Shown: positions 3,771-53,605, counted from the stretch's first letter. The stretch is DNA of 64,000 nt from an uncultured Clostridia bacterium (GCA_934462715.1 CAKSIJ010000001.1:98130-162129), one strand, 5' to 3'. Numbers and translations: made by a program. Notes: generated by a model from the letters alone, not told the origin.

Positions 3771-3789
3771 GTTAATTGTCCTCCCTCTT

Positions 3790-7896: not shown

Positions 7897-7925
7897 ACAA
7901 ATCTCCTTTCCGATTTTACTCGTTT

Positions 7926-7949
7926 GGGGCTGCTTTTCGGAGCAGCCCC
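7926..7949 (-). other. Intercistronic stem-loop (GGGGCUGCU/AGCAGCCCC) between two giant genes. Possible RNA processing or stability element, or a partial terminator.
   Basis: 9-bp GC-rich perfect stem with a 6-nt loop. On the minus strand no U-tract follows it, and the next RBS and ATG lie ~30 nt downstream. Confidence 0.3.
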
Positions 7950-7965
7950 GGTTGTCCTTTAAATT

Positions 7966-12582: not shown

Positions 12583-12699
12583 ACAAGCACCTCATCTGTG
12601 TGATTTTAATGGTTTCGTATAACCGCCTTTTGCACGGGCAGGCATTTAACCTGCCCATGCAATTATCGGTTAATTTCTTATAAATTTTTAAGGTAAAGC

Positions 12700-19574: not shown

Positions 19575-20798
19575 ATGAACTCAATGATAATAATTGATGA
19601 TGAAGCTTTTTTTCTTAATTCGATAAAAACACTGCTCGACTGGGAATTGTTTGACATATCCTTAAAGGGTGCGTTTACAAATCCTGTTGAAGCTATGGAC
19701 TACATTAAGGAAAAACACGTTGATATAATCATGACCGACATAAAAATGCCGGTTGTTAACGGTATAGATATTGCCCGCTACTGTCACTATAATTCTCCCG
19801 ACACAAAGGTAATCTTTTTAAGCGGATATGAGGATTTTGAGTACGCAAAGCAGGCTATAAACTACAGCGTTTACTCCTACCTCACCAAACCGGTTTCACG
19901 CTCCACTCTTACAAAGCTCTTTTCGGAGCTTAACAACGAGCTGGGCAAAAACAGAATAAAGAACCAGTTTTTAAGCGACGGAGCAAACGATATAATAAGA
20001 AAGCAGTTCATGAGAATAATGTCTGAGGAAAATGCCGACGTGCAGGAAATTGCCGATTCTCTCAACGAGTTCGGAATAGATTTTGACTATAACCAATCGC
20101 ATTTTGCCGTAATTTCAATAAAAATAAGTGATCCGGATGATTACTATAAAACCAAGTGGCACCATAATGACGAACAGCTTATAAAGGCTCTTGAAAATAT
20201 AGTAAACAGCCATCATTACTGCGGCTATTCCGGTCTGACATTTTTCTATAATTCGGGCTTTGACATATTCTTTATTTCAAAGCCGAATATAAATTTCGGA
20301 GAGGTGTCGCAGTTTATAGATAATCTGGTTGTACAGCTTCATGACTTGTTCCGCGAATGTCTGAGAATGAACACCGAAGCTCCTGATGTTTTTATAGCCA
20401 AAAACGCAGATGATCTGAAAGGCTACAACAATACCTTTCTTTCTCTGAAAAAAGAGAATATGACAAAGAATAAAAATCAGATAATGCTTGACGCTAAGGA
20501 ATATATCGACAACCACTATTCTGAAAATATCACACTCGGAATGATTTCAAGCAAATTCGGCTTTAACCAGACCTATTTTTCCAATCAGTTTACAAAGAAT
20601 TTCAACGTGAAATTTTCCGATTATCTCACAAAAATCAGAATGGAGGCTGCAAAGGAGCTTTTGGTAAATTCAGAAACAAAAATATCCTCAATTCCTCAGC
20701 TTGTCGGACTGTCAAGTCTCCCGACTTTCTCTTTATCCTTTAAAAAATATACCGGCTATTCACCGTCGGATTACAAAAACAAATTTGGAAAGATGTAA
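19575..20798 (+). CDS. Two-component response regulator with a CheY-like receiver and an AraC-type HTH output (YesN-like).
   Basis: N-terminal IIIDDE...IIMTDIKMP receiver. C-terminal AraC HTH (ITLGMISSKFGFNQTYFSNQF...SPSDYKNK). RBS AAAGGAG. Confidence 0.85.
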   Translation: MNSMIIIDDEAFFLNSIKTLLDWELFDISLKGAFTNPVEAMDYIKEKHVDIIMTDIKMPVVNGIDIARYCHYNSPDTKVIFLSGYEDFEYAKQAINYSVYSYLTKPVSRSTLTKLFSELNNELGKNRIKNQFLSDGANDIIRKQFMRIMSEENADVQEIADSLNEFGIDFDYNQSHFAVISIKISDPDDYYKTKWHHNDEQLIKALENIVNSHHYCGYSGLTFFYNSGFDIFFISKPNINFGEVSQFIDNLVVQLHDLFRECLRMNTEAPDVFIAKNADDLKGYNNTFLSLKKENMTKNKNQIMLDAKEYIDNHYSENITLGMISSKFGFNQTYFSNQFTKNFNVKFSDYLTKIRMEAAKELLVNSETKISSIPQLVGLSSLPTFSLSFKKYTGYSPSDYKNKFGKM

Positions 20799-20872
20799 AG
20801 CTTTCATTCTTTACACAAATAAATCCCGAACAAATTACTGTCTTTACAGTTAAACCGAAAGGAGCCTACCGC

Positions 20873-22567
20873 ATGAAACACTTTGAAAGCTTTTCAAAGC
20901 ACATACTCTTTAAAAACAAACAAAGCAAGCTTACTCTGTATTATATTAAACATATCATCACAATTATCATTCTGCCGATATTCCTTTTCAATGCTGCATT
21001 TATAACTCTTTTTCTTAATTCTTACAATAACAATCTGAACGGTCAGGTGCGTTCGGTTGCCGAAAAAAATGCAAACATTCTCGATAACGTATTTCACAAT
21101 GTGGATACATATTATAAAACAAGCATTTCTAACAACAGTATTTATTTGCTGTTAAATAATTCGTTTAACGTAAATAACCTATACGGTTCTCAGCCCCCTG
21201 TCACTATCGCATCTAATGCCGCTTACACTCTTAACAATTATCTTAACTGCATAGACTCCGTTTTTCTCTACAGCGAAAAATCAGATTACATATACGGTCT
21301 GTTGGGTCAAACCTCAAAGAAATTTGAAGACTTCGATGACAAAACATGGTATGATGAATACTTGAAAAACAACAGATCGGACTACATTTCTTCTGTGGAA
21401 TACAACGGCATTCCTTATCTGACGTTTTGTTATAATCTGAACAACATCTCCTCCGAGAATCACGGTATACTTGTCATCAGAATTTCACAGGAGGAGCTTT
21501 TACAAAGAATGAAGCTTGTAAATGACAACACAAACACTCTTAAGCTTTGTGCTGACGATACCGGCAATGAGCTGATAAACTACAATCCCGAAAGCTCAAA
21601 AAGCGGTATAGAGTACACCGTACCGCTTGAAAATACAAACGCAACACTTACCTACTCCGCATTATATAAATCAACCCCCGGACAACTGTTCGGAAAGTTT
21701 ACGCTTATTATCCTGTTTGCACTTATATCATTTATTCTGGCAATATTGCTTGCTTTGGCATTTTCTTCAAAGCAGTATAAATCCATAATATCGGTTATAT
21801 CTGAAATTGAGGATCCATACATCAGCGATAAGATGGAAGCCAAAAAGCTTTACAGCCTTATAGAGCAAACCGACACTTCTCACACAATGAATAATTACGA
21901 AAATATGCTGCTAAACAAAATAACGCATTTGAAAAAAGCGCAGCTTGTCGCTCTGCAAACGCAGATCAATCCGCATTTTCTATACAATACTCTTTGCATG
22001 ATTTCCGCTTCTATTATGGCAAATCACGAAGAGGACACCGACGCAGTTAACATGATCGAGCTTTTATCGGTTGTTCTGCGCTATACCCTAAAAACCGAGA
22101 AATATATCGTTCCGATCGACAGCGAAATCAAAGTGTTGAAATCCTACATTGAAATATTGAAGCTGCGGCTTAACAATGCTTTTGACGTTTCCTGGAACGT
22201 CAGCGAAAGCGTCACCTCAAGATGCACACTGAAATCCTTGCTTCAGCCGGTTATAGAAAACGCCGTAGAACACGGAATACAGCCTCTTTTCAGCTCTCGT
22301 CAGGGAGAAATAACCGTTAATATATATGAAGAAAACGATATACTCTATCTAAACGTAACCGACAACGGTGTCGGTATTGATGCTGAAAACCTTGAAAAAA
22401 TAAACAACGATTTAAACTCTGATTCTATATTTACCAATAATAATATCGGTTTGAAAAATGTTGTAAGCAGAATTAAGCTTTTGTTCGGCGATATGGCAGG
22501 GTTCATTATCAAGTCGGAGGGGCTCGGGACAAGCGTTACGATATATCACCCTATTATCAGGGATTGA
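20873..22567 (+). CDS. Sensor histidine kinase, YesM-like (two TM segments, internal His_kinase region, HATPase_c).
   Basis: TM helices flank an extracellular domain. QLVALQTQINPHFLYNTL matches the His_kinase (PF06580) signature. GEITVNIYEEND...NVTDNGVGID is an ATPase domain. Confidence 0.85.
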   Translation: MKHFESFSKHILFKNKQSKLTLYYIKHIITIIILPIFLFNAAFITLFLNSYNNNLNGQVRSVAEKNANILDNVFHNVDTYYKTSISNNSIYLLLNNSFNVNNLYGSQPPVTIASNAAYTLNNYLNCIDSVFLYSEKSDYIYGLLGQTSKKFEDFDDKTWYDEYLKNNRSDYISSVEYNGIPYLTFCYNLNNISSENHGILVIRISQEELLQRMKLVNDNTNTLKLCADDTGNELINYNPESSKSGIEYTVPLENTNATLTYSALYKSTPGQLFGKFTLIILFALISFILAILLALAFSSKQYKSIISVISEIEDPYISDKMEAKKLYSLIEQTDTSHTMNNYENMLLNKITHLKKAQLVALQTQINPHFLYNTLCMISASIMANHEEDTDAVNMIELLSVVLRYTLKTEKYIVPIDSEIKVLKSYIEILKLRLNNAFDVSWNVSESVTSRCTLKSLLQPVIENAVEHGIQPLFSSRQGEITVNIYEENDILYLNVTDNGVGIDAENLEKINNDLNSDSIFTNNNIGLKNVVSRIKLLFGDMAGFIIKSEGLGTSVTIYHPIIRD

Positions 22568-22580
22568 TTTATAAAAAAAC

Positions 22581-22617
22581 TTGCAATAAAATACTTTTTA
22601 TGTTATAATTAGTTATA
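22581..22617 (+). promoter_or_regulatory. Sigma-A-type promoter for the GH36 gene.
   Basis: TTGCAA, a ~17-nt spacer, then TGtTATAAT, ~55 nt upstream of ATG 22670. Confidence 0.4.
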
Positions 22618-22669
22618 CTGATATTGACACAAATTTTAACATGAAAAAAACAATAAGGAGTACAATTTT

Positions 22670-24613
22670 ATGAACACTATCAAGCAAAAGGACAACTACG
22701 GCGGCGAATATTATCTGATTGAAATGCCGGATAAGAGCTTTAAATTCGACTTACCTGTCGAAAAAGTCGAAAACTTCAAGGCATTTTGCGCTTCTTACAT
22801 GAAAGATCCGTTTTTCATGGGAGTAAAATCCGGCGGCATCGTTAATGAAATTCCTTATGAAACGCAGTGGCTCGCAATACTTCACACCGATAATACATAT
22901 TCGCTTTATTACAGCCTTGCGTGCGATAAATTCAGAACCGCATTTCACGGAAACGATGACAGTCTGTGTATTTCCGCAACCACCGGCGACAGCAGTCTGA
23001 CCGGCAATTCTTTTTGTGCCTTTTATAAAATTTCCGGTTCCGACTTTTACGCTCTAACAAAAACAGCCGCAAAAAGCATTTCTGAAAAATACTCATCGGT
23101 CGGTTTGAAATCTGAAAAGGACGATCCGGACTTTATTGATTATTTCGGTTGGTGTACATGGGATTCCTTTTATGATAAGGTATCTCAAAGCGAAATTAAA
23201 AGAGGTCTTGAGTCCTTCAAAAAAGGCGGATTTATTCCAAAGCTGCTGATTCTTGACGACGGCTGGCAAACAACAGCTGAATACAACGCAAGAGGTGAAT
23301 GGAAGCTTTCTGCCTTTACACCGAATGAAAAGTTTAATCATAATCTGATTGAAACAACAAAAATGGCAAAGGACGAATACGGAATCAAAAAATTCTTCGT
23401 TTGGCACGCTATGCTCGGATATTGGGGCGGCGTTGATACCAATTCAGAAGCAATGAAAAAATATAAGCCTGTTTTAAGTAATGCCGTACATACGGACGGA
23501 ATGAAAAACGTCAATCCGTTACGCTGGCAGAGCGAAAACTTTCCTTTCGGCATGATCGACCCGGACAAAGCATATGATTTTTACAATGATTATCATTCAT
23601 ATTTAAAAAGCGAGGGCGTCGACGGAGTAAAAGTTGACGTTCAAGGTTCAATTCCCGCACACGCAGAAAAAAGAGGAAGCCGCTGCGAGCTTGTTAAAAA
23701 GTTCAGAACAGCACTTGAACGCTCGGTAAATGAAAACTTTGGCGGAAACATAATTAACTGTATGTCAAGCAATAACGATACTGTCTATAACTTAAAAAGC
23801 ACAAACATTATGCGCACCTCCGATGATTTCTTCCCTGCGAACCCCAAATCACATTCTGTTCACGTATTCACAAATGCTGTAAACAGCATTTGGCTCAGTG
23901 AATTTACAGGCTGCGACTGGGATATGTTCCAGACTAAGCACAAATTTGCAAGCTTTCACGCAGCCGCAAGAGCGATAAGCGGAGGACCTGTTTATGTTTC
24001 CGACAAGGTTGACGAGCATGATTACAACATAATCTCAAGGCTGACATCTCCGGACGGCAAGATTTTCAGAGCAAAAAACATAGCCCGACCGACGGTTGAC
24101 TGCATATTCTCAAACCCGGCAGAAAACAAAGATTTATTCAAGATTTTCAACACAAACGAATATAACGGAGTTGTCGGAATATTCTCTTTTGATAACGACA
24201 GCGTAAAAAACACAGAAGTATTTCCGACAGATATTGACGGTTATACCGACGGAGAGTATGCGTGCTATAGCTTCAAGAATTGTAAAGCTGTTCACCTTAA
24301 CAGTAAAGAATCCGTCAACGCAGCATTAAGAAAAACCGAATTTGATCTGCTGACCTTTGCAAAAATTTCAGATGGTTTTGCGGTAATCGGTCTGACAAAC
24401 AAATACAACTGCGGCGGTACGTTTGATAAGCTTCAAAAAGCAGACGGCAGTTATTTGATGCACGTCAAGGATTCCGGGGTTCTGTTACTGTACTCGGTTA
24501 AAAAAATAAAATCTGTGATATCCTGTGATGGTGAATTGCCGTTTGTTTCCGAGAACAGCTTTGTAAAAATATTGGTAAAAAATGCCGGCGATATTGAAAT
24601 TGCTTTAACATAA
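22670..24613 (+). CDS. Glycoside hydrolase family 36, raffinose-synthase / Sip1-like subfamily. Predicted intracellular alpha-galactosidase-type enzyme.
   Basis: Hallmark motifs YFGWCTWDSFY and LILDDGWQ. No signal peptide. RBS AAGGAG. Confidence 0.75.
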   Translation: MNTIKQKDNYGGEYYLIEMPDKSFKFDLPVEKVENFKAFCASYMKDPFFMGVKSGGIVNEIPYETQWLAILHTDNTYSLYYSLACDKFRTAFHGNDDSLCISATTGDSSLTGNSFCAFYKISGSDFYALTKTAAKSISEKYSSVGLKSEKDDPDFIDYFGWCTWDSFYDKVSQSEIKRGLESFKKGGFIPKLLILDDGWQTTAEYNARGEWKLSAFTPNEKFNHNLIETTKMAKDEYGIKKFFVWHAMLGYWGGVDTNSEAMKKYKPVLSNAVHTDGMKNVNPLRWQSENFPFGMIDPDKAYDFYNDYHSYLKSEGVDGVKVDVQGSIPAHAEKRGSRCELVKKFRTALERSVNENFGGNIINCMSSNNDTVYNLKSTNIMRTSDDFFPANPKSHSVHVFTNAVNSIWLSEFTGCDWDMFQTKHKFASFHAAARAISGGPVYVSDKVDEHDYNIISRLTSPDGKIFRAKNIARPTVDCIFSNPAENKDLFKIFNTNEYNGVVGIFSFDNDSVKNTEVFPTDIDGYTDGEYACYSFKNCKAVHLNSKESVNAALRKTEFDLLTFAKISDGFAVIGLTNKYNCGGTFDKLQKADGSYLMHVKDSGVLLLYSVKKIKSVISCDGELPFVSENSFVKILVKNAGDIEIALT

Positions 24614-41451: not shown

Positions 41452-41799
41452 CGTGTTTCCTCCAATTCGTTTCTGTATATGCAATTGCAAAGCTATCGCT
41501 TTACAATTATAAAGCTTAAACAAAATGACAAGCAGATAATAAGTGTATTATCTTTCATTATATATTATACTACGCTTTTACCGATAAATCAATAGCAAAT
41601 TTCCAATATACTCCAATAAACCTTTTTATTTTTCAAAATAATCAAAAATGATGTCAAATTCAATCGTTTAATTGTTAATTTAACTTGTGAATTTAAGGTA
41701 AAATGTATAATGCGCTCACACCGCAAGGCATAAGCGCATTAAATTTCGGATATTGATATAACTGTTAATGTTCGTAATTCCGCCGCAATCCGGCAAATA

Positions 41800-43227
41800 T
41801 TACTTGACAACGCTTATTGCATCGGAAATTGTCTTTTCATACGCTTCACGTCCGTATGCGTCAACTCTTGCTTTATTTCTGTCGCCGTGAGTAAGACAGC
41901 CTGCACCGCCGATACAGCCGCCGACGCAAGCCATACCCTCTATAAAGTTTCCGTCAAGCATATTCTTTGACGCCTTCAACAGAGCAATTTTGCACGCCTC
42001 AATTCCGTCGCACGGAACGGCTTTAAGCTCAAAATTCTTGTCAAGCCCCTGTTCTTTCAGTCCCTGTGCCATCGCGTCAGAAAGTCCGCCGCTTCTTGCA
42101 AATATTCTTCCGAAATATGAAGCGTTATCGAGAATATCCTCCTCCATTTGAGTAATGTCGAGGTCACGGCTGTCGAACAGCGCCTGTAATTCCTCAAAGG
42201 TTATAACACAGTCGACATATTTTCTGACTTCCTCCTTTTGGAACTCGGATTTTTTTGCAATACACGGTCCTATAAATACAACCCTTGCGGTTTTATCAGT
42301 TTCTTTAATATACTTCGCTATCGTTGCCATAGGCGAAAGGTTATGAGAAACCTTATCGAGCATTGCAGGGAATTGCTTTTTTATATAATCAACGAATGCC
42401 GGGCAGCATGAGCTTGTCAAAAATCCTTTTTCTGCAAGCTCTCTTGCTTCAGCGGCGGCAACCATATCCGCACCGAGCGCAGCTTCGATTACCGTATAGA
42501 AGCCAAGTGCTTTTACGCCGGAGATAACCTGTCCGAGCTTAGCATAGGAAAACTGTGAGGCAATAGACGGAGCCGCCACGGCATACACCTTATACTCTGA
42601 ATTATTTGCGCTCTTTTTTATCGTGTCTATAGCGTTGATAATAAAGGATTTATCCATAATCGCACCGAACGGACACTGATAAACGCAGGCACCGCAGGAT
42701 ATACACTTGTCATTGTTTATTCGTGCGGTTTTATCATCATTCATGGCAATCGCTTTTACCTTGCAGGCATTCTGGCAAGGTCTTTTTAGATTCGCTATTG
42801 CTGTATACGGGCAGACTCTCGAACAAGCTCCGCACTCTATACATTTTGTCTTGTCGATATGTGCTTTCTGATGCTCATCAAAAGTTATCGCACCCTTTTT
42901 GCAAACGTCCTCACATCTATGAGCAAGACAGCCGCGGCAGGCATTTGTGACCTCATATCCGCCCACGGGACATTCGTCACAGGCAATATCTATCACTTCA
43001 ACCACGTTTTCATTTTCATGACTTCCGCCCATTGCCATTTTAACATACTTTGAAATTATCGCTCTGTCCTTATAAACACAGCAGCGCATTGTCGCTTCCT
43101 TGCCCGGAGCAATCATCTCGGGTATGTCGGATATTTTTTCAAACAGAGTATCATTCCACGCACAGCGTGCAACCTCTCTGAGTATTTTATACTTCAGGTG
43201 CTGTACCTTAGTATCAAATTTTCTCAT
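41800..43227 (-). CDS. hydA: [FeFe]-hydrogenase catalytic subunit, monomeric ferredoxin-dependent type (HydA2 / HfsD-like).
   Basis: Cys-rich ferredoxin-like N-terminus. H-cluster motifs SSCCPAF (L1), GPCIAKKSE (L2) and EGMACVGGCIGGAG (L3). Confidence 0.85.
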   Translation of the reverse strand: MRKFDTKVQHLKYKILREVARCAWNDTLFEKISDIPEMIAPGKEATMRCCVYKDRAIISKYVKMAMGGSHENENVVEVIDIACDECPVGGYEVTNACRGCLAHRCEDVCKKGAITFDEHQKAHIDKTKCIECGACSRVCPYTAIANLKRPCQNACKVKAIAMNDDKTARINNDKCISCGACVYQCPFGAIMDKSFIINAIDTIKKSANNSEYKVYAVAAPSIASQFSYAKLGQVISGVKALGFYTVIEAALGADMVAAAEARELAEKGFLTSSCCPAFVDYIKKQFPAMLDKVSHNLSPMATIAKYIKETDKTARVVFIGPCIAKKSEFQKEEVRKYVDCVITFEELQALFDSRDLDITQMEEDILDNASYFGRIFARSGGLSDAMAQGLKEQGLDKNFELKAVPCDGIEACKIALLKASKNMLDGNFIEGMACVGGCIGGAGCLTHGDRNKARVDAYGREAYEKTISDAISVVK

Positions 43228-43269
43228 TATTTCACCGTCCTCATATTGAATTATATCATTTTAAATTGA

Positions 43270-44439
43270 TTAAAAGTATGAAACCTTTATCCGCTTCCCC
43301 ATCTTTTTCAGACACTCGGAAAGCTCTTTTACCAGATTCATTTTTATATTAAAATTAATAGGCAAATCGGGATTCTGATGCGCAGGGTTCACCGCTTTAC
43401 CGACAAAGAAATTAATATCGGTTGCGTCCTCAAACAACATTCTGGATATTTGCGCAGCACCGTCATGACCCATTTCCCATTTTTCGTAATTCTCGTTATC
43501 GCTTATAAAATCCTTTGCATATTCGACCACACGGTTGACGGTTATAACTCCCTCCGTAACCAGATCAACGCCCTCAATTTCCGCCGTGGGCGGCAGATCC
43601 GACTCAAAATTCAGCGACGGTTTTATTTCCTTGCCAAGATATTTCGCAGCAATCGTTGAGGTTGTACCGCCGCATATGATGTGTTTGCCCTCTTTCGAGA
43701 AAAACAGCGACATCATTCTGTCATTATCGTCACGGTCGGCAGGGGGGCCGAAAAGAAGATTCATCGGATTCCGCTTTCTTATCCTTATAACGCAAGCGGT
43801 AGCGTCATCTCCGGGTTCTCCGCCGTAGAGAGTGTAGCACTCGTCTATCAGCATTGTTGCAATTGTTTTTGCATTGTAGCCGCCGCAGAAAACCGTTTCA
43901 ACGTAATCTGTAATATCCTCTCTTTTCCACCCGAAATTGTACGATATGCCTATTCCGGCATGAGGACAGCCGTCGCTCATAGCCACAATCAGATCGTTTT
44001 CTTTGAGCTTTATATCCGATTTATAAATTTTCTTTCCGTCTATGGTCATTTCGGTTTTCGGATAATCGAAATCGGAGCCGTCACGCAGGAATATTGCCTG
44101 CGGATTATCATACTGAATTATCTGTGCGGTATCATTGTTGATTATATTTATAACTGTAAATGTGGAATATGCCACGCCCCTCACCGAGCAGATAGGCAGG
44201 GTCTGCGCTATTGTTGACACACATTCCTCAAGAGGCAGTCCGGCGGCAAGCATGGTTGAAATTATCTTTGAGGTAAGCGTTGACAAAATGCTCGCCTTGA
44301 CTCCGCTCCCCAAACCGTCCGCAAGAACTATTATCATGGAATTGTCATTCGGATTTACTATCTCAACATGATCGCCGCAAAGCTCCTCACCGTAATGGTT
44401 TATGCTTTTGCAGCCTATGTCGGCACACAGATCATTCAT
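43270..44439 (-). CDS. PP2C/SpoIIE-type serine phosphatase (HfsC-like) with a C-terminal domain of unknown function.
   Basis: PPM motifs IIVLADGLGSG and GDDATACVI. Its start overlaps the hydS stop by 8 nt. Confidence 0.75.
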   Translation of the reverse strand: MNDLCADIGCKSINHYGEELCGDHVEIVNPNDNSMIIVLADGLGSGVKASILSTLTSKIISTMLAAGLPLEECVSTIAQTLPICSVRGVAYSTFTVINIINNDTAQIIQYDNPQAIFLRDGSDFDYPKTEMTIDGKKIYKSDIKLKENDLIVAMSDGCPHAGIGISYNFGWKREDITDYVETVFCGGYNAKTIATMLIDECYTLYGGEPGDDATACVIRIRKRNPMNLLFGPPADRDDNDRMMSLFFSKEGKHIICGGTTSTIAAKYLGKEIKPSLNFESDLPPTAEIEGVDLVTEGVITVNRVVEYAKDFISDNENYEKWEMGHDGAAQISRMLFEDATDINFFVGKAVNPAHQNPDLPINFNIKMNLVKELSECLKKMGKRIKVSYF

Positions 44440-46108
44440 CGGTTATCGTCTCCTTCAGCTTTGTTAAAGCAATCTTTGTTTCGGCTGCCGTTTCTCCCAA
44501 AAGTGACGCAATATCCTGTACAATTCTCATCTGCTTGTCAACAACCTTGTCCGCTATCTCTACCGTTTTTGCGCTGATTTCCTCTTTTTTTCGTCTTTCG
44601 TCCTCTTCATCGGATATATCCTTCATCATTCCTATAATAACATTATAATCGGAATCGTAGATCACCGTCATTTCTACATACTTGTGATACTCCGCAAGAT
44701 AAACCTTTTTGTCTGTAATATTTCTTCCGGTTTGCTTAACCGTCATAAAATCTGTCGGGTCAAGTATTCTCACCACAGGCTGACCCATAACGTCAGAGTT
44801 GCTTCTGATATTCATTATATTTCTTGCCGCACGGTTTATCTGCTGAACCTCCATTTCCTCGTTCAGCACAATTATACCGTTTGGCGTGTTATTTACAATG
44901 TTATCCGAAAAGCTCTCCGCTCTTTCCTTCAGATACGGCAGGCACATGGAAATTTCCGCTTTTCCTCTGAATACTGCCACCGCTTTTGCACGGCAGGTAT
45001 CATATCCGCACGAACCGCAGTTAAGCTCGTCCTCCGGCTTTGTCTTGCCCATTTTACGCAAAACCTCTCTTATCTGCATTTCGGACGGCTTATCGTGTAT
45101 CGCTTCTATCGGTTCAAACAGCTTTGTAAGTTTATCGGGCGACGGCTGCTCAACTTCAAAATCCGCATTTCCGGCATAATCGTTGATTGCCTTGTATCTT
45201 CGTATCGGCATATTTATGTTTTTATCCATCATCGGCCCGCCGATACAGCTGCCCTCGCATATTGACATTTCTATAAAGCATTTATGGATATTTCCGTTTT
45301 CAATATCCTTTAGTGCCGCAATACAGTTCTGTGCACCGTCAACAACCAGATAGGTGTACCCATCAACCGTCTTTCCCATCGTTCTGATTATTCCGCCCGA
45401 GGTCGGGAAAAGTCTTGCTTTGCTCGCTTCGTTATCGTCCAAATCACGCTCCGGTACAACGCTTTCGCTCTCCAGCCAATCCGAAAGCTCATCAAAGGTC
45501 AATACTGCGTCAACTATATTTTTATAATGCTCCGCTTCGTCTTTTTTTGCAACGCACGGGCCGATAAATACGGTTTTTGCACCTGGATTGCGTTCCTTGA
45601 TATCAATTGAATGTGCCTGCATGGGCGAATACACGTCTGCAAGATAAGGCAGTAATGCCGGGAAATATTTTTGAATCAAAAGATTTGCCGAATGACAGCA
45701 TGAGGATATTAAAACGTCCTTTTCGTTATTGCGAAGCATCCTGTTATATTCGTTTTTAACAACGGTAGCTCCTATGCTCGTTTCCTCGGCGTCAGCAAAA
45801 CCAATCTTTTTCAAAGCTTCTCTCATTCCGTTAATTCCCACGCCGGAATAATTCGCCGCAAAGGACGGAGCAATACTTGCAATCACAGGCACTCCGCTTT
45901 GTATAAACACCTTTACCTTTTCGGTTTCGTCAACAACCTCTTTTGCGTTCTGCGGACAGACCACAACGCAATGTCCGCACAAAATACACTCGTCACCGAC
46001 AATATGCGCCTGATTTCCGGAAAAACGTATAGATTTAACCGGGCAGTGACGTATACACTTATAGCAGTTTTTACAATTAGACTTTTTCAGTTTAAGACAA
46101 TCAGCCAC
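44432..46108 (-). CDS. hydS: Putative sensory [FeFe]-hydrogenase HydS (HfsB-like). 2x[4Fe4S] ferredoxin domain, H-cluster domain, Cx2Cx4Cx16C cluster motif and a C-terminal PAS domain.
   Basis: GTG start with RBS GGAGGG. CKNCYKCIRHCP and CILCGHCVVVCP. L1-3 variants SSCCHS, GPCVAKKDE and EMSICEGSC. CGSCGYDTC...(16)...MC. PAS-like NGIIVLNEEMEVQQINRAARNIMNI. Confidence 0.8.
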   Translation of the reverse strand: MADCLKLKKSNCKNCYKCIRHCPVKSIRFSGNQAHIVGDECILCGHCVVVCPQNAKEVVDETEKVKVFIQSGVPVIASIAPSFAANYSGVGINGMREALKKIGFADAEETSIGATVVKNEYNRMLRNNEKDVLISSCCHSANLLIQKYFPALLPYLADVYSPMQAHSIDIKERNPGAKTVFIGPCVAKKDEAEHYKNIVDAVLTFDELSDWLESESVVPERDLDDNEASKARLFPTSGGIIRTMGKTVDGYTYLVVDGAQNCIAALKDIENGNIHKCFIEMSICEGSCIGGPMMDKNINMPIRRYKAINDYAGNADFEVEQPSPDKLTKLFEPIEAIHDKPSEMQIREVLRKMGKTKPEDELNCGSCGYDTCRAKAVAVFRGKAEISMCLPYLKERAESFSDNIVNNTPNGIIVLNEEMEVQQINRAARNIMNIRSNSDVMGQPVVRILDPTDFMTVKQTGRNITDKKVYLAEYHKYVEMTVIYDSDYNVIIGMMKDISDEEDERRKKEEISAKTVEIADKVVDKQMRIVQDIASLLGETAAETKIALTKLKETITDE

Positions 46109-46146
46109 AGCATTTCCCTCCTTCGTACCGTAACATCGGGCTTTAA

Positions 46147-46386
46147 TTAAGCCTTTGCAAGAATTTCGGTATTAAAAAATTCCTCAACCGTTTCGGGACT
46201 GACAGAGAAAAATACATCGTCAACCATTGTACAGACTCCTTCACGGCATTTTCCCATACAGAATGTTCCCGCAAGCTCAACCTTATCTTCAAGCTTATTA
46301 TCGGCAATTAGCTTTTGCAGTGCTTCAACAACCTGTCTTGAACCTTTCAAATGACATGAGCTTCCAATACATACCGTAACCTTCAT
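46147..46386 (-). CDS. Thioredoxin-like [2Fe-2S] ferredoxin (NuoE/HfsA-like).
   Basis: 79 aa. CIGSSCHLKG ... CMGKCREGVC Cys pattern. Confidence 0.7.
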   Translation of the reverse strand: MKVTVCIGSSCHLKGSRQVVEALQKLIADNKLEDKVELAGTFCMGKCREGVCTMVDDVFFSVSPETVEEFFNTEILAKA

Positions 46387-46518
46387 AATTCATCTACCCT
46401 TTCTTATCTTACAGGCAACCGGAAAATCAACGCTTTTCAATTACCCGCTATTTATTTAAAACACCGTAAATATTGAAAAAATACCTCCGGTGCATTTTTC
46501 ATGTAGTAAGCACAGAAC

Positions 46519-46555
46519 TTTCAGCCGCAAAAACAGTGTTTTTTTGCAGCTGAAA
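46519..46555. promoter_or_regulatory. 37-bp near-perfect palindrome between the kinase-like gene and the ferredoxin/hydS operon. Candidate operator or attenuator hairpin.
   Basis: TTTCAGCCGCAAAAACA g TGTTTTTTTGCAGCTGAAA. No U-tract follows it on the coding (minus) strand. Confidence 0.35.
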
Positions 46556-46610
46556 GCCGTTAAATCCATTTATTATTTTTTCTTCCGTTATACTCTTTTT
46601 TCAAGAGCTT

Positions 46611-47360
46611 TTATTCATAATCCACAACGTCAACCCATGACAAAAGGAACTCTCTTTCCTCGGGCTTGCCCTTAACCGACTGTGACGCCGCAACGATAGG
46701 CAGCCATTTTTCAACATACTGTCTTGCGGTATCGCTCTTTTTGCAGAAAAGCTCAAGATATTTTCTTGCCTTTTCTTCGTCATCCTCAAGACGGAACAAA
46801 AGATAGGTTCTTGCTGCGTCCGCCGAGGCATTTCCCTGAGTTGCGTGCGACCAGTCAAGTATGAACAATTCACCGCTGTCCGTAACTATTATATTGCTCG
46901 GATTAAAATCTCCGTGGCAAAGTTTGTTATGCTTCGGCATACTTGCAAGTCTTGTATGCAAATCATACCTCGTTGTTGCGTCAAGCTGAGCCTGTGTGAT
47001 TTTTCTGTCCATTTTATCCTTCAGCTTATTTAAAAGAGGTGCTTTTTTGCTGTGCATTTCAAGCTGCAAATCGACAAACATTTCAAGATATTCGTCAAGC
47101 TTATCGGGATTTTCCTGCATAAGCGCTCCGAGATTCTTTCCCTCGATAAAATCCGAAACAATTGCCCAGTTGCCGTCTATAACCGTTACCTCTCTGATTT
47201 TCGGAATATTAAGACCGGTTTCCTCCGTTCTCGCCTGGTTCAGCGCTTCGTTGAGTACGTCAGCCTTTGAATAGTTTTTATCAAAAACCTTAACCGCAGC
47301 GTCACCCGAACGATACACTGTTTTATTTGTTCTTTCGGCTACAATCTTATCAAGCTTCAT
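46611..47360 (-). CDS. Small atypical protein-kinase-like phosphotransferase (APH / Bud32 / RIO / Kdo-kinase-like fold).
   Basis: ATG at 47360 with RBS GGAGGG, 13 nt after the adhE stop. Motifs AAVKVF (Lys), IVSDFIEG (hinge), CHGDFNPSNIIV (catalytic loop) and ILDWSHA. The track ORF begins 45 nt further upstream. Confidence 0.6.
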   Translation of the reverse strand: MKLDKIVAERTNKTVYRSGDAAVKVFDKNYSKADVLNEALNQARTEETGLNIPKIREVTVIDGNWAIVSDFIEGKNLGALMQENPDKLDEYLEMFVDLQLEMHSKKAPLLNKLKDKMDRKITQAQLDATTRYDLHTRLASMPKHNKLCHGDFNPSNIIVTDSGELFILDWSHATQGNASADAARTYLLFRLEDDEEKARKYLELFCKKSDTARQYVEKWLPIVAASQSVKGKPEEREFLLSWVDVVDYE

Positions 47361-47373
47361 GCCATATCCCTCC

Positions 47374-49989
47374 TTACACTCTGTCATGCTTACCGTAATA
47401 AGCATTCAAATACATCTGTTTTATCTCGCTCATAAGCGGATATCTCGGGTTTGCTCCCGTACACTGATCATCAAATGCCTGTTCCGTCATATCGTCAAGC
47501 CTTGACAAAAAGTCATTTTCATCAATGCCGTAATCCTTAATCGTATTCTTTATTTCAACAGTCTTTTTAAGCTTGTCGATTTCGGATATCAGATTTTCAA
47601 CGCTTTGTTCGTCTGTCTTTGCGCCGAAGCCCAGATACCTTGCTATCTCTGCATAACGTGCTATGGTGTGCGGATATCCGTACTGAGGGAACGTACCCAT
47701 CTTCACGGGAGTTTCTGACGAATTAAAGCGGATAACCTCATCTATCATCAATGCATTTGCTATACCGTGCGGCAAATGATGAAACGCTCCGAGCTTATGC
47801 GCCATTGAGTGGCACACTCCCAAAAATGCATTTGCAAAAGCCATACCTGCCATAGTTGCGGCATTAGCCATTTTTTCTCTTGCCTCAACATCATTCCGGC
47901 CGTCCTTATATGCACGAGGCAGATAATCGAATATAGTCTTTAAAGCCTTTAGCGCCAAACCGTCGGTATAATCGGTCGCAAGCATAGAAGCATAAGCTTC
48001 AAGTGCGTGCGTTACCGCGTCTATACCTGAAGCCGCCGTAAGTCCTTTCGGTGCGCTCATGTGGAAATCGGTATCTATAATCGCCATATTCGGCATAAGC
48101 TGATAATCCGCAAGAGGATATTTAACTCCGGTCTTTTCATCGGTTATAACCGCAAACGGGGTAACCTCCGAGCCTGTTCCGGCAGAGGTCGGAATTGCTA
48201 TAAAATATGCCTTTTCTCCCATTTTAGGGAAAGTATATACTCTTTTTCTTATATCTGAAAAGCGCATTGCCATATCCATAAAATCTGCATCGGGGTGTTC
48301 GTAAAGCACCCACATGATTTTTGCCGCGTCCATTGCGCTTCCGCCGCCGAGAGCGATTATGCAGTCGGGTTCAAACGCACTCATAAGCTTTGCGCCGTCC
48401 TTTGCGCACGCAAGGGTCGGATCGGGAGCAACATCAAAAAATACCGTGTGAGTTATTCCCATTTCGTCAAGCTTATCGGTTATCGGCTTGGTATATCCGT
48501 TATGATACAAAAAGCTGTCGGTTACTATAAAGGCTTTTTTCTTGCTCATAACATTTTTCAGCTCGTCAAGCGCAACCGGCAGACAGCCTTTCTTTATATA
48601 AACCTTTTCCGGACTTCTGAACCAAAGCATATTCTCTCTCCTTTCGGCAACCGTTTTTATATTAAGAAGATGCTTCACTCCGACATTTTCGGAAACGGAA
48701 TTTCCGCCCCATGTACCGCAGCCCAGCGTCAGTGACGGAGCAAGCTTAAAGTTATACAAATCGCCTATACCGCCGTGTGATGACGGTGTGTTTACAAGAA
48801 TACGGCAGGTTTTCATGCGCTCTGCAAATTTATCCAGCTTTTCCTGCTCGGACAGAACGTTCAGATATACCGACGAGGTATGTCCGTAGCCGCCGTCCGC
48901 TATCAGTCTTTCCGCCTTTGCAAGCGCTTCGTCAAAGCTTTCCGCCTTGTACATTGCAAGTACAGGCGACAGCTTTTCATGTGCAAATTCCTCAGATATA
49001 TCAACGCTTGTCACCTCGCCTATCAATACCTTTGTACTTTCCGGAATCTCAACTCCCGCAAGCTGCGCTATTTTATACGGTTTCTGACCGACTATTTTGG
49101 CATTGAGAGAACCGTTGATTATTATTGTTTTTCTGACCTTATCTATTTCATCGGCTTTAAGGAAATAGCAGCCTCTGTCAGAAAATTCTTTCTTTACTTT
49201 CTTATATATATCCGACATAACGATAACCGACTGCTCCGATGCGCAAATCATACCGTTGTCAAAGGTTTTTGAGTGTATAATCGAATTGACGGCAAGGAGT
49301 ATATCCGACGACGAATCGATAATTGCCGGCGTATTTCCGGCGCCTACGCCCAAAGCAGGCTTTCCGCTCGAATATGCAGCCTTTACCATACCCGGTCCTC
49401 CGGTTGCGAGGATAATATCCGCTTCTCTCATTACCGTATTTGTCAGCTCAAGGCTCGGTACGTCTATCCAATCGATAATTCCCTCCGGCGCACCTGCCGC
49501 AACGGCGGCTTCGAGCACAATTTTCGCAGCCTCAACCGTACTTTTCTTTGCTCTCGGATGCGGACTGATTATTATTGCGTTTCGTGTCTTTAACGCTATA
49601 AGCGTTTTGAATATTGCGGTGGAGGTCGGGTTTGTGGTTGGGATAACGGCGGCAATCACTCCGATAGGCTCTGCTATCTTTTTGATTCCGTATGCCTTAT
49701 CCTCCTCTATCACACCGCAAGTTTTTGTATTTCTGTATGCGTTATAAATATATTCTGCGGCATAGTGATTTTTGATTACTTTATCTTCAACCACTCCCAT
49801 GCCCGTTTCCTCAACCGCCATTTTGGCAAGAGGTATTCTGGCTTTGTTTGCAGCGATGGCAGCTGCCGCAAAAATTTTGTCTACCTGTTCCTGGGTATAA
49901 TGCGAAAATTCGTTCTGTGCCTTTCTCAGCCTTTTTAAGGCTTTTTCCAGGGATTCAACACTGTCGATTGTTTCATAGATTTTTTCCAT
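47374..49989 (-). CDS. adhE: Bifunctional acetaldehyde-CoA / alcohol dehydrogenase AdhE.
   Basis: 871 aa. N-terminal ALDH domain (IAEPIGVIAAVIPTTNPTST) and a C-terminal Fe-ADH domain. Confidence 0.95.
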   Translation of the reverse strand: MEKIYETIDSVESLEKALKRLRKAQNEFSHYTQEQVDKIFAAAAIAANKARIPLAKMAVEETGMGVVEDKVIKNHYAAEYIYNAYRNTKTCGVIEEDKAYGIKKIAEPIGVIAAVIPTTNPTSTAIFKTLIALKTRNAIIISPHPRAKKSTVEAAKIVLEAAVAAGAPEGIIDWIDVPSLELTNTVMREADIILATGGPGMVKAAYSSGKPALGVGAGNTPAIIDSSSDILLAVNSIIHSKTFDNGMICASEQSVIVMSDIYKKVKKEFSDRGCYFLKADEIDKVRKTIIINGSLNAKIVGQKPYKIAQLAGVEIPESTKVLIGEVTSVDISEEFAHEKLSPVLAMYKAESFDEALAKAERLIADGGYGHTSSVYLNVLSEQEKLDKFAERMKTCRILVNTPSSHGGIGDLYNFKLAPSLTLGCGTWGGNSVSENVGVKHLLNIKTVAERRENMLWFRSPEKVYIKKGCLPVALDELKNVMSKKKAFIVTDSFLYHNGYTKPITDKLDEMGITHTVFFDVAPDPTLACAKDGAKLMSAFEPDCIIALGGGSAMDAAKIMWVLYEHPDADFMDMAMRFSDIRKRVYTFPKMGEKAYFIAIPTSAGTGSEVTPFAVITDEKTGVKYPLADYQLMPNMAIIDTDFHMSAPKGLTAASGIDAVTHALEAYASMLATDYTDGLALKALKTIFDYLPRAYKDGRNDVEAREKMANAATMAGMAFANAFLGVCHSMAHKLGAFHHLPHGIANALMIDEVIRFNSSETPVKMGTFPQYGYPHTIARYAEIARYLGFGAKTDEQSVENLISEIDKLKKTVEIKNTIKDYGIDENDFLSRLDDMTEQAFDDQCTGANPRYPLMSEIKQMYLNAYYGKHDRV

Positions 49990-50045
49990 AATATCATTCT
50001 ACTCCTTTTTAAAGATTTAAGCGGTTTTTATCTATCCGCTCAATA

Positions 50046-50064
50046 GAGTGATATGCCGCACCTC
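50046..50064. promoter_or_regulatory. Perfect palindrome GATATTC-ctatt-GAATATC in the adhE leader. Possible second operator.
   Basis: 7-bp inverted repeat with a 5-nt spacer, ~60 nt upstream of the adhE ATG. Confidence 0.3.
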
Positions 50065-50092
50065 CGATATTCCTATTGAATATCCCGGCATA

Positions 50093-50110
50093 ACAGAACA
50101 GTATTTCTTT
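50093..50110. promoter_or_regulatory. Rex (redox-sensing repressor) operator upstream of adhE.
   Basis: TTGTTAAtattTTAACAA matches the clostridial Rex consensus TTGTTAAnnnnTTAACAA at 18/18 positions. ~105 nt upstream of the adhE start. adhE is a classical Rex target. Confidence 0.7.
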
Positions 50111-50247
50111 ATTTGTTAATATTTTAACAAACTTTTTGACCCATTGCAATATCAAAAAATTTATAACCTTATATAACCGGCTTATATCAAATTTTAATTA
50201 TTAAATTTTTCGCTGTATTATCGGTTTTACCGCTATCCGTATAAAAA

Positions 50248-51183
50248 TTATATGCTTGGTACCCCAAATTTTTTCATGGCGGTTTTAACTTCTTCTATAA
50301 AGTCAAGATCAAGCTTTGTAAGCTTGTAATTTTTTCTGTATATCAAAACATCTCTGTATATCTTGTTGTTGTCCTCAGAGCTTTTTTCAATAAGACCGAA
50401 TTGGGTGAGCTTTTCCTCAGACATCGGTGTAATCCACATAAATGTGTCGGGTACGTTCTGGAGCAAATCAAACTGGCTCGCTCTTTCAAAAACGAATATT
50501 CTGTTGTCGACATACTCGCCCAGTTCCTCCCTTTTGAGCTCTGCAAGCGGCATTGACGGAACATACGGATCCGCATGAGATATTTCGGTATATTCTTTCA
50601 GATCGGAAAGTCTTATATTATCCTTATCCGCAAGCGGATGCTCCTCAGACATTACGAGCATATATGAAAACTCCGCAAGCTCCTCAAATGCAAGCCCTTT
50701 TTCTCTGAGCATGGTTTTAAAGTAAGAATCATAAGAGGTCTTGTATCTGATTATGCCGAGCTTGTAGTCCTCCTGCAAAATATTGTCAATCGCACGCTTA
50801 GAGTTGGTTTCCTTATAGAAAAACTCAATAGGCTTTTCTTTCGGCGCTTTTTTCGCAAACTGAGAAAAGGCATAAGATATATAGCTTGATCTCGGCACGG
50901 AAATCGAAAATTTCTGTTTCTGGCATCCGCCGTTCTTATACATATTTTCAACCTCATCAATCTGCGCAAGGATTTTCTTTGCGTAGCTCAAAAATTCCTC
51001 GCCCTGAACCGTTGTAGTCATTCCCTTTGAGGTTCTCTTGAATATTGAAATTCCGAGATCCTCCTCCAGCTCTTTGAGCGCACGGCTGAGATTTGGCTGA
51101 CTCATATAAAGCGTTTCAGCCGCCTTGTTTATTGAATGATGTTTTTCTATCTCAAGTGCATATTTTAAGTGTAAGATATTCAT
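50248..51183 (-). CDS. LysR-family transcriptional regulator.
   Basis: ATG at 51183 with RBS AAAGAGGA gives MNILHLKYALEIEKHHSINKAAETLYMSQPNLSRALKELE (HTH), followed by a substrate-binding domain. The track ORF begins 111 nt further upstream. Confidence 0.85.
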   Translation of the reverse strand: MNILHLKYALEIEKHHSINKAAETLYMSQPNLSRALKELEEDLGISIFKRTSKGMTTTVQGEEFLSYAKKILAQIDEVENMYKNGGCQKQKFSISVPRSSYISYAFSQFAKKAPKEKPIEFFYKETNSKRAIDNILQEDYKLGIIRYKTSYDSYFKTMLREKGLAFEELAEFSYMLVMSEEHPLADKDNIRLSDLKEYTEISHADPYVPSMPLAELKREELGEYVDNRIFVFERASQFDLLQNVPDTFMWITPMSEEKLTQFGLIEKSSEDNNKIYRDVLIYRKNYKLTKLDLDFIEEVKTAMKKFGVPSI

Positions 51184-51754: not shown

Positions 51755-52546
51755 ATGCATACAATTACAAGCACGCAAAACGAAAAATACAAATTTTTCA
51801 AATCGCTTAAACAAAAAAAATACAGAACCAAAACAGGTTTGTACACTGTCGAGGGCATGAAGTCCGTACTGGACGCGGCTTCTTCCGGTGCGCAGACAGA
51901 AGCACTGATCGTTTCTGAATCGTTTTTTAACGCTCAAAAATCATCTATTCCCCGGCAGACGGAAATTTATTCGGTATTGGATTCAATCTTTGCTCCGCTG
52001 TCTGACACAGAAGCTCCACAGGGAATTATTGCGGTAATTAAAAAGGATTGCGAAAAAGAATTTCTTCCGGATTTGTCAAAAGCATATATTTACTGCGACA
52101 GACTGCAAGATCCGGGGAATCTCGGGACAATCATACGGACCGCAGATGCGGCAGGCTTTGGCGGCATACTGCTTTCAAACGACTGTGCCGACCTCTATTC
52201 CCCGAAAACGGTACGTTCAAGCATGGGTTCTTTCTTTCATATTCAAGCGTATGAAAACTGTTCGCTAGGCACTCTCTCCGAATTAAAAACACTTGGTTTT
52301 TCTGTTGTGTGCGGCGTTCTGTCCGACAAGACAATTGACTACACCGCAGCAGACTTTACAAAACCCGTCTTATTGGTTATCGGCAACGAAGCAAACGGTA
52401 TCTGCGATGAGATTTTAAAAATATCCGATTGCGATGTTAAAATCCCGATCAGCGGGAAAGCGGAATCACTCAATGCCGCCGTTGCCGCAGGTATTTTAAT
52501 GTATGAGGTTAACAGACAAAGAAATGCTTTTAAAAAGGTGAAATAA
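51755..52546 (+). CDS. TrmH/SpoU-family RNA 2'-O-methyltransferase.
   Basis: SPOUT motifs NLGTIIRTADAAG, IGNEANGI and AESLNAAVAAGILMYE. Confidence 0.8.
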   Translation: MHTITSTQNEKYKFFKSLKQKKYRTKTGLYTVEGMKSVLDAASSGAQTEALIVSESFFNAQKSSIPRQTEIYSVLDSIFAPLSDTEAPQGIIAVIKKDCEKEFLPDLSKAYIYCDRLQDPGNLGTIIRTADAAGFGGILLSNDCADLYSPKTVRSSMGSFFHIQAYENCSLGTLSELKTLGFSVVCGVLSDKTIDYTAADFTKPVLLVIGNEANGICDEILKISDCDVKIPISGKAESLNAAVAAGILMYEVNRQRNAFKKVK

Positions 52547-53605
52547 ATGACTGAAACAGCAAACACATCAAATCTTGTTTCGAAGCTTGAAAAAAATCGT
52601 ACTCTTTCCAATTCCGATTTTAAGAAGCTTCTGGAAACGGATATATATGATAACGATTTATTTAAAGCGGCAGACGAGGTCAGGCGCAGAAATTACGGAA
52701 CAAAGGTCTACATCAGAGGTCTTATCGAATTTACAAATTACTGCCGTAACGACTGCTTCTACTGCGGAATACGGAAAAGCAACAAAAATGCCGAACGATA
52801 CCGTCTTACGCAAGAAGAAATTCTTGATTGCTGCAAGGAGGGATATTCTCTCGGATTCCGCACCTTCGTTCTGCAAGGCGGTGAGGACGAATATTTTGAC
52901 GATGATAAGCTCTGCTCGATCGTTTCCGCAATACGCGGAAATTATCCCGATTGTGCAATCACTCTGTCTGTTGGTGAAAAATCAAAAGAAAGCTATGAAA
53001 AGTATTTCAAAGCCGGTGCAAACCGTTATCTTCTGCGCCACGAAACAGCGGATAATCTGCATTATTCAAAACTTCACCCACATTCCATGAGTCTTTGTAA
53101 CCGAAAAAAATGCCTGTTTGACTTAAAAGAAATCGGGTATCAGGTAGGATCGGGATTCATGGTAGGAAGTCCTTTTCAGACTTCCGAAAGCTTAATTTCG
53201 GATTTGAGATTTTTGCAGGAGCTGAAGCCGGACATGATAGGGATAGGACCGTTTATAACGCACTGCGACACACCGTTTGCAAAATACAAAAGCGGAACGC
53301 TTGCATTAACGCTTCGGCTTGTTGCGATTCTCAGACTTATGTTTCCGTATGCACTGATACCGTCAACAACCGCTCTCGGGACTATAGATCCGAACGGGCG
53401 TGAATTGGGATTGAAAGCCGGCGCCAATGTTGTTATGCCGAATCTTTCACCGGTCGCAACAAGAAAGCTTTATGAGCTTTATGACAATAAAATCTGCACA
53501 GGCGAGGAGGCCGCACAATGCAGAGGTTGTCTTGAAGCGCGCGTCAAATCAGCCGGATATGAGATCGTGACCGATATAGGCAATCCCTGCCGACATTCGG
53601 ATTAA
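52547..53605 (+). CDS. hydE: [FeFe]-hydrogenase H-cluster maturase HydE (radical SAM).
   Basis: VYIRGLIEFTNYCRNDCFYCGIRKSN matches the HydE-type CxxxCxxC context. 352 aa. Biotin-synthase-like fold. Starts immediately after the methyltransferase stop. Confidence 0.7.
   Translation: MTETANTSNLVSKLEKNRTLSNSDFKKLLETDIYDNDLFKAADEVRRRNYGTKVYIRGLIEFTNYCRNDCFYCGIRKSNKNAERYRLTQEEILDCCKEGYSLGFRTFVLQGGEDEYFDDDKLCSIVSAIRGNYPDCAITLSVGEKSKESYEKYFKAGANRYLLRHETADNLHYSKLHPHSMSLCNRKKCLFDLKEIGYQVGSGFMVGSPFQTSESLISDLRFLQELKPDMIGIGPFITHCDTPFAKYKSGTLALTLRLVAILRLMFPYALIPSTTALGTIDPNGRELGLKAGANVVMPNLSPVATRKLYELYDNKICTGEEAAQCRGCLEARVKSAGYEIVTDIGNPCRHSD

Follow-up and report, generated by a model that had tools for sequence, protein, structure and literature searches.

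The hydS-adhE cluster and its proteins

We analysed a window of 64,000 nt of DNA from an uncultured Clostridia bacterium (GCA_934462715.1, CAKSIJ010000001.1:98130-162129), in which a minus-strand gene cluster combines hydS, encoding a putative H2-sensing [FeFe] hydrogenase, with adhE, encoding a bifunctional acetaldehyde-CoA/alcohol dehydrogenase. All coordinates given below count from the first letter of this window. The list of open reading frames (ORFs) together with Pfam searches gave the order lysR, adhE, an APH-type kinase gene, fdx, hydS, a PP2C phosphatase gene, a group B hydA and a hairpin. The six genes from adhE to hydA had been proposed in an initial annotation, and we recovered each of them at the coordinates and with the domains given there. 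Order, orientation and the upstream lysR are those of a gene cluster of Ruminococcus albus 7, and protein identities between the two clusters are 56-76%. Judged from this common order and these identities, the locus is an ortholog of the R. albus 7 cluster, in a derived form.

The first gene after lysR, adhE (47374..49989, minus strand, as for all genes of the cluster), encodes 871 aa and is followed after 13 nt by the gene of a small phosphotransferase of the APH/choline-kinase fold (46611..47360). A spacer of 224 nt (46387..46610, minus strand), with a 17-bp hairpin predicted by RNA folding at 46517-46557, separates this kinase gene from fdx (46147..46386), which encodes a thioredoxin-like [2Fe-2S] ferredoxin. 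After a further 38 nt, hydS (44432..46108) opens with a GTG start and encodes 558 aa. By ORF coordinates its stop and the start of the phosphatase gene (43270..44439; 389 aa) overlap by 8 nt, and hydA (41800..43227; 475 aa) follows the phosphatase gene after 42 nt. The gap behind the kinase gene, the overlap and the 42-nt interval all agree with the spacings initially described. About 60 nt past the hydA stop lies a terminator-like hairpin (41708..41741, minus strand), consisting of a 15-pair stem and then a T-rich tail, which is likely the end of the operon. The next gene is zapA, and its promoter-like sites lie beyond this hairpin.

HydS matched the Pfam domains Fer4, Fe_hyd_lg_C (PF02906, E 2.6e-47), FeS PF04060 (43.3 bits) and PAS PF00989 (28.5 bits against a cutoff of 22.6). 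The initial annotation had made its reading depend on an H-cluster domain and a PAS domain in this 558-aa protein, and both were found by Pfam. The N-terminus carries eight cysteines, sufficient for two [4Fe-4S] clusters. We aligned HydS with CpI and with 82 orthologs. Its H-cluster ligands C138, C185, C284 and C288 correspond in this alignment to C300, C355, C499 and C503 of CpI, and G183 and S282 stand at the positions of CpI M353 and M497, as do G177 and S267 in TmHydS. A C-terminal Cx2Cx4Cx16C motif (C364/C367/C372/C389) follows, with the PAS domain after it. The eight N-terminal cysteines, the ligands, the two substitutions, the four-cysteine motif and the PAS domain are invariant in 82-83 orthologs. 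An atypical four-cysteine [4Fe-4S] motif at the C-terminus together with a PAS domain is the hallmark of group C (PMC13104023). With all sequence features of that group present, the 558-aa protein is a group C putative sensory [FeFe] hydrogenase, as had been proposed. It is 63% identical to R. albus HydS, and a sequence search of the PDB found no HydS structure.

HydS also keeps the proton-relay cysteine, C137 (CpI C299; motif SSCCHS), as do all 82-83 orthologs. Loss of this cysteine is typical but not universal for group C, and only 17% of sensory [FeFe] hydrogenase sequences have a cysteine at this position (PMC10055695). HydS thus departs from the typical state and shows a minority state, which does not exclude it from the group.

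The phosphatase matched Pfam SpoIIE (PF07228, 53.6 bits) and is 76% identical to the R. albus protein. In its AlphaFold2 model the PP2C half matched SpoIIE (5mqh) with a Foldseek E of 7e-13, identifying a PP2C domain of the SpoIIE/RsbU type. Residues D23, D41, D156 and D211/D212 are invariant among orthologs; from our reading of the motifs we take them to be the PP2C metal-binding aspartates. The C-terminal domain of ~160 aa (residues ~230-389) gave no Foldseek match, although AlphaFold2 performed poorly in this part (mean predicted local distance difference test score, pLDDT, of 67.6 for the model). Between species the phosphatase (homologs P0046-P0151), its unassigned C-terminal domain included, is 77-79% identical, against 66-71% for HydS. 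The higher conservation hints at several constrained interaction surfaces.

The last protein of the cluster, HydA, contains Fer4 domains and Fe_hyd_lg_C (E 5.7e-59) and is 71% identical to R. albus HydA2. It matched TIGR04105 (FeFe_hydrog_B1) at full length, over residues 4-447, with 558 bits against a cutoff of 450, as a monomeric group B [FeFe] hydrogenase of the HydA2/HfsD type. The R. albus enzyme was called group A1 by Greening et al. 2019 (PMC6776011), unlike the group B assignment given by TIGR04105.

AdhE has the Pfam domains Aldedh, Fe-ADH and ADH_Fe_C, matched NCBIfam NF010378 with 1400 bits against a cutoff of 951, and shares 76% identity with AdhE of R. albus 7. The ferredoxin (79 aa, Cx4C...Cx3C, Pfam 2Fe-2S_thioredx) shares 76% identity with R. 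albus Fdx1 and 46% with Fdx2, which identifies it as the ortholog of the first R. albus ferredoxin.

The kinase-like protein matched Pfam APH (53.9 bits), with a partial match to RIO1, and is 65% identical to the R. albus phosphotransferase. Its ORF might open at 47405; the start at 47360 is backed by alignment with the R. albus ortholog and by independent gene calls. The nearest solved structure is choline kinase 4r77, with which the catalytic loop HGDFNPSN and an ILDW motif align. No NCBIfam model was matched at cutoff, the best matches being APH, RIO1, choline kinase and Bud32. Pfam gave no Pkinase match, the sign by which a Hanks-type Ser/Thr kinase is recognised; 'Ser/Thr protein kinase' is therefore an assumed label, though a kinase catalytic loop is present. 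A protein-kinase role would follow only from the pairing with the PP2C phosphatase.

The lysR gene (50248..51183, minus strand) lies directly upstream of the operon and in the same orientation. Its product has the Pfam domains HTH_1 and LysR_substrate and is 56% identical to the LysR encoded upstream of the R. albus 7 cluster, and alignment with that protein sets the start at 51183. A lysR gene occupies the same position in most related loci.

Related loci, promoter region and genomic setting

A scan for HydS with one genome per species gave 80 loci with 66-71% identity, almost all of them in metagenome-assembled genomes of gut or rumen Clostridia. R. albus proteins were mapped onto these loci by tblastn, and the counts that follow come from the 45 loci in which 6 kb or more are available upstream of hydS. 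They hold for the clade closest to the window rather than for group C loci in general. The initial annotation had suggested comparing synteny for the adjacency of adhE and had presented this adjacency as a special point. The adjacency is real, and it was already published for R. albus 7 (PMC6776011); adhE was found in the cluster in 32 of the 45 loci, and the order shared with R. albus 7 comes back in dozens of genomes counted at species level. The full R. albus order occurs in 14/45 and an order from which only rex is missing in 10/45, and the exact form seen in the window (no rex, one ferredoxin gene) in two (L037 and L056). A minority of loci lack adhE, the kinase gene or both, and Monoglobus (L082) provides a further example outside the 45. 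The core of the system is fdx-hydS-pp2c-hydA; adhE and the kinase gene normally accompany it but can be missing. Three loci (L012 4461-5651, L028 3989-5194 and L078 2966-4174) have an extra gene between lysR and the operon that encodes an Fe-ADH domain only; the products are 37-41% identical to the C-terminal half of AdhE.

Rex is an NADH/NAD+-sensing repressor whose regulons in Clostridia commonly include adhE, and its operator consensus in these bacteria is TTGTTAANNNNTTAACAA. Upstream of adhE, at 50113..50130, we found a predicted Rex operator that reads TTGTTAAAATATTAACAA on the minus strand of the operon and TTGTTAATATTTTAACAA on the plus strand. This 18-bp inverted repeat matches the consensus at 14/14 specified bases and is the sole perfect match in the 64 kb. 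Matches with up to two mismatches number 3 in the window against 0.69 expected, and ~1% of shuffles of the intergenic region contained one. The initial annotation was right that a perfect Rex box precedes adhE but had put it at 50093-50110; it lies 20 nt further upstream, beyond the end of the annotated interval. The operator overlaps the -10 of a promoter-like site (50121..50149, minus strand) composed of TTGCAA, 17 nt and TAAAAT, with TG before the -10. Called by consensus matching (9/12 plus TG), this is the only good promoter-like site upstream of adhE.

We compared the region upstream of the first operon gene, anchored on the -10, in ~35 species (loci L001-L081). These regions share a layout with a dyad, a weak -35 (TTCCCA, TTTACA or TTGCAA) and an extended -10, TGnTAnAAT. 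A Rex box with up to two mismatches lies over the -10 in 16/16 loci in which rex is absent and adhE comes first, the window being counted among them, but in only 3/19 loci in which rex comes first (Fisher's exact p = 3e-7, a value that overstates independence as the loci are related). R. albus 7, with rex in the operon, belongs to the second kind, and its best promoter match to the Rex box has five mismatches. Across species, an operon rex gene and a promoter Rex box are therefore nearly mutually exclusive. Our reading is that the NADH input may be wired in either of two ways, by a rex gene inside the operon or by an operator for a Rex encoded elsewhere. A tblastn search with R. albus Rex gave no match in the 64-kb window at E = 1e-3.

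The dyad, TATATCGATA-N6/7-ATACCGATAT, stands just upstream of the weak -35 in most species, namely in R. albus 7, with TATATCGATAAAGATAATATCGATAT at L081 4233-4257, and in ~30 other loci. In the window, the alignment anchored on the -10 places a degenerate counterpart, GATATAAGCCGGTTATATAAGGTTATAAA, at 50160..50188 (minus strand), and TATCGATA was not found near the operon; the TATATCGATA...ATATCGATAT of R. albus 7 is thus degenerate here. We consider the dyad a candidate activator site and the adjoining LysR the obvious candidate to bind it. However, five loci that have the dyad (L018, L040, L045, L074 and L079) lack a lysR in reach, and a comparison of the LysR recognition helix with the dyad gave no informative pattern of covariation, the helix-turn-helix regions being nearly uniform. 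For both reasons the assignment of the dyad to LysR is a guess. A literature search for hydS together with LysR and adhE found no papers.

Some versions of the dyad, such as GATAATGATAAT in L016, resemble a Fur box. Upstream of adhE in L042 (~310-330) and L063 (~150-170) there is a palindrome, TCGATAAATAGTTATCGA, with the 7-N4-7 geometry of a Rex box and other half-sites; it directly follows a consensus promoter, TTGACA-17-TATAAT, and more CGATAA repeats lie downstream.

The genes that flank the cluster are housekeeping genes (zapA, a U32 peptidase gene, maf, a SpoU-type methyltransferase gene and dnaB), so that the locus is chromosomal. Proteins identical to those of the cluster are confined to metagenome assemblies of human gut samples, Hadza samples included. 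A gene for the maturase HydE (TIGR03956, 573 bits against a cutoff of 255) lies 2.5 kb off at 52547-53605 on the plus strand. It begins right at the stop of a SpoU/RlmB-like methyltransferase gene (51755-52546, plus strand), ~1.4 kb past the lysR start at 51183. The neighbouring ORFs checked included no gene for HydF or HydG. At the other end of the window, 630-15714 (minus strand) holds four consecutive very large ORFs of 1062, 1368, 1538 and 1004 aa. Between 18000 and 24000 the G+C content drops to 0.36-0.40 and the sign of the AT skew reverses; at this dip three plus-strand ORFs (19575-24613) break an otherwise minus-strand run of genes.

A model of regulation and its alternatives

In R. 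albus, expression of the cluster of eight genes, alcohol/aldehyde dehydrogenase included, falls 111-fold when the cells are grown together with an H2 consumer. Greening et al. 2019 propose that H2 is sensed directly by HydS, through its PAS domain and the phosphatase (PMC6776011). We think it probable that the locus in the window is the ortholog of this high-H2 fermentation operon and that it has Rex and HydS as its inputs. The model starts from the gene content, the orthology, the sequence, position and conservation of the operator and the intact cofactor and catalytic motifs; from these we infer Rex binding, a single transcript in this species, H2 sensing by HydS and all steps after HydS.

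Transcription would start from one promoter upstream of adhE and most likely end at the hairpin after hydA. Because the -10 lies inside a perfect Rex operator, a Rex protein from another genomic locus would keep the operon silent at low NADH/NAD+. At low H2, a bifurcating hydrogenase would reoxidise NADH and ferredoxin, NADH/NAD+ would be low, Rex would sit on the -10 and the operon would be off. Build-up of H2 would block the bifurcating hydrogenase, NADH would rise, Rex would leave, and AdhE and the ferredoxin-only hydrogenase would be made. AdhE would then reoxidise NADH via ethanol, and the group B ferredoxin-only hydrogenase would reoxidise ferredoxin; a fermenter that produces H2 needs both enzymes once H2 builds up.

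The operon would in addition bring its own putative H2-sensing module of HydS, PP2C phosphatase, small kinase and [2Fe-2S] ferredoxin. HydS would bind H2 at its H-cluster and alter the activity of the translationally coupled phosphatase, which would oppose the kinase on a putative target and so tune expression or enzyme activity. This would constitute a second, H2-specific input. That some input other than Rex exists is indicated by the R. albus operon, since its large H2 response goes with a promoter that lacks a recognisable Rex box.

Several points weigh against this model. The Rex repressor is assumed, because there is no rex gene in the 64-kb window. The retained C137 may give HydS an H2 turnover closer to that of a catalytic enzyme. 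In groups C and D alike, H2 sensing is a putative function, and H2 fails to reduce the C-terminal cluster of TamHydS, an enzyme of group D (PMC13104023). The fold of the kinase-like protein is APH/choline-kinase and not Hanks-type, and the protein may for this reason phosphorylate a small molecule. Finally, R. albus has no counterpart of the structured spacer, and this spacer could divide the cluster of the window into two parts that differ in expression.

This last point leads to an alternative that we consider unlikely, in which the cluster forms two units. Rex would control adhE and the kinase gene, fdx-hydS-pp2c-hydA would be expressed or attenuated independently by way of the 224-nt spacer, and the adjacency of the two parts would be inherited and uncoupled. 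In favour of this, the predicted fold of the spacer (-59.5 kcal/mol) is far better than that of shuffled sequence (z = -4.3) and contains the 17-bp hairpin. The spacer is near-identical in six other strain contigs and hence fixed among the strains sampled. It stands in place of the ~10-20 nt gaps of R. albus and most relatives, which have two tightly packed ferredoxin genes where the window has the spacer and one fdx. It also holds a weak promoter-like site (TTGAAA, 18 nt, AAAAAT at 46604-46575). However, this site matches at 9/12, no better than many in shuffled sequence, the hairpin lacks a U-tract, and no terminator-like site, strong promoter-like site, Rex box or other conserved element was found in the spacer. 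Furthermore, the tightly spaced order is kept in 32/45 species, and in R. albus the whole cluster responds as a unit.

No homolog of the spacer was found in the loci of other species, making it species-specific. Rfam searches of the whole window at gathering thresholds gave no match in the spacer or elsewhere, nor any rRNA or tRNA family. The spacer thus appears to be a lineage-specific insertion. Within a single operon, it may modulate the ratio of the adhE-kinase transcript to that of the sensor and hydrogenase through partial termination, processing or stability. We also considered the spacer as a decayed second ferredoxin gene and rejected this, as tblastn with R. albus Fdx2 matched the existing fdx only.

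It is equally improbable, in our estimation, that HydS is no transcriptional sensor at all. HydS, the ferredoxin and HydA2 would then serve as redox enzymes that, for instance, cycle hydrogen or route electrons. AdhE or a hydrogenase would be modified post-translationally by the kinase and phosphatase, or else the kinase would have a small molecule as its substrate, and transcription would be controlled entirely by Rex and other DNA-binding regulators. HydS does keep the proton-relay cysteine and all H-cluster ligands, and the kinase is closest to small-molecule kinases. In Thermoanaerobacterium saccharolyticum the change in adhE transcript under-explains the change in enzyme activity, which suggests post-transcriptional control (PMC5707799), and a genetic study from 2025 proposes hydrogen cycling involving HfsD (PMC11837493). 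The behaviour of the TamHydS C-terminal cluster towards H2 (PMC13104023) points the same way. Set against this, the G183 and S282 substitutions accompany low-turnover sensory enzymes, and HydS combines a PAS domain with translational coupling to a signalling-type PP2C. The 111-fold transcriptional response of R. albus, from a promoter whose best Rex-box match has five mismatches, likewise counts against this reading.

Very unlikely, finally, is a more specific proposal for this clade, in which the promoter joins an interchangeable redox input, either a rex gene in the operon or a Rex box served by a Rex encoded elsewhere, to the dyad as a fixed activator site. LysR, its activity set by phosphorylation or by a ligand made by the kinase, would be the output of the HydS-PP2C-kinase pathway, and H2 sensed by HydS and NADH sensed by Rex would thereby meet at a single promoter. 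The conserved dyad and the neighbouring LysR are nonetheless concrete candidates for the output step after HydS.

Comparison with known systems

Rex control of adhE has been described (PMC5707799). Unlike the usual Rex-adhE units, the transcript in the window would also carry a putative H2-sensor module and a hydrogenase. As to the sensor itself, the biochemically characterised group C enzyme of Thermotoga maritima, TmHydS, resembles the HydS described here in its N-terminal [4Fe-4S] clusters, H-domain, C-terminal four-cysteine cluster and PAS domain, but has A131 at the proton-relay position occupied here by C137 (PMC10055695).

The initial annotation had likened the cluster to hfsABCD of T. 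saccharolyticum (Shaw et al. 2009; Eminoglu et al. 2017). By domain content and published descriptions, hydS-pp2c-hydA does correspond to HfsB, a PAS-containing [FeFe] hydrogenase, HfsC, a serine phosphatase, and HfsD, a ferredoxin-linked, HydA2-like enzyme. The likeness is doubtful for hfsA: the literature likens HfsA in part to the large subunit of a hydrogenase (PMC11837493), whereas the gene in this position in the window encodes a thioredoxin-like ferredoxin, the two having been compared by description only. The hfs genes, too, are linked genetically to adhE expression (PMC11837493, PMC5707799), and deletion of hfsB raises the adhE transcript 2- to 3-fold (PMC5707799). In contrast to the window, adhE is described as lying elsewhere in the T. 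saccharolyticum genome, and the operon descriptions name no kinase or thioredoxin-like ferredoxin.

The closest known system is that of R. albus 7, which we located on pRUMAL01 by tblastn of HydS against plasmid records. There, lysR-rex-adhE-kinase-fdx-fdx-hydS-PP2C-hydA2 occupies 137906-147916 on one strand, with gaps below 20 nt. The cluster comprises RUMAL_RS17350 to RS17385 (rex, adhE(aad), phosphotransferase, fdx, fdx, hydS, SpoIIE, hydA2), and lysR is RS17345. The abstract of Zheng et al. 2014 (J Bacteriol 196:3840) reportedly places Aad, a Ser/Thr kinase, a phosphatase and a redox-sensing repressor in the unit. In their model, as relayed by Eminoglu et al. 2017, HydS senses H2 and the PAS domain signals to the adjacent Ser/Thr kinase (PMC5707799). 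The locus in the window shares with R. albus 7 the hydS/pp2c overlap and the layout of a weak -35 with an extended -10. It differs in being chromosomal, the R. albus copy being on a megaplasmid, in lacking rex and the second ferredoxin gene, in the 224-nt spacer that follows the kinase gene, and in carrying a perfect promoter Rex box where the best R. albus match has five mismatches.

Because the locus is the R. albus 7 operon in another species, it represents no new kind of system. Both the system and its linkage to adhE are already known (published 2014, 2019), and the locus is a further member, from a gut species and with a derived layout. Its worth lies in comparison: many gut and rumen Clostridia carry the module, adhE normally belongs to it, and the NADH input appears to be wired in two ways. 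What is new here is the comparison of promoters, with the alternative Rex wiring, the conserved dyad and the LysR neighbour, which provide useful but modest leads. H2 sensing and the switch between acetate/H2 and ethanol in fermenters bear on rumen methane, gut ecology and biofuel strains, and the cultivable R. albus 7 is a better place than the uncultured organism to test these leads.

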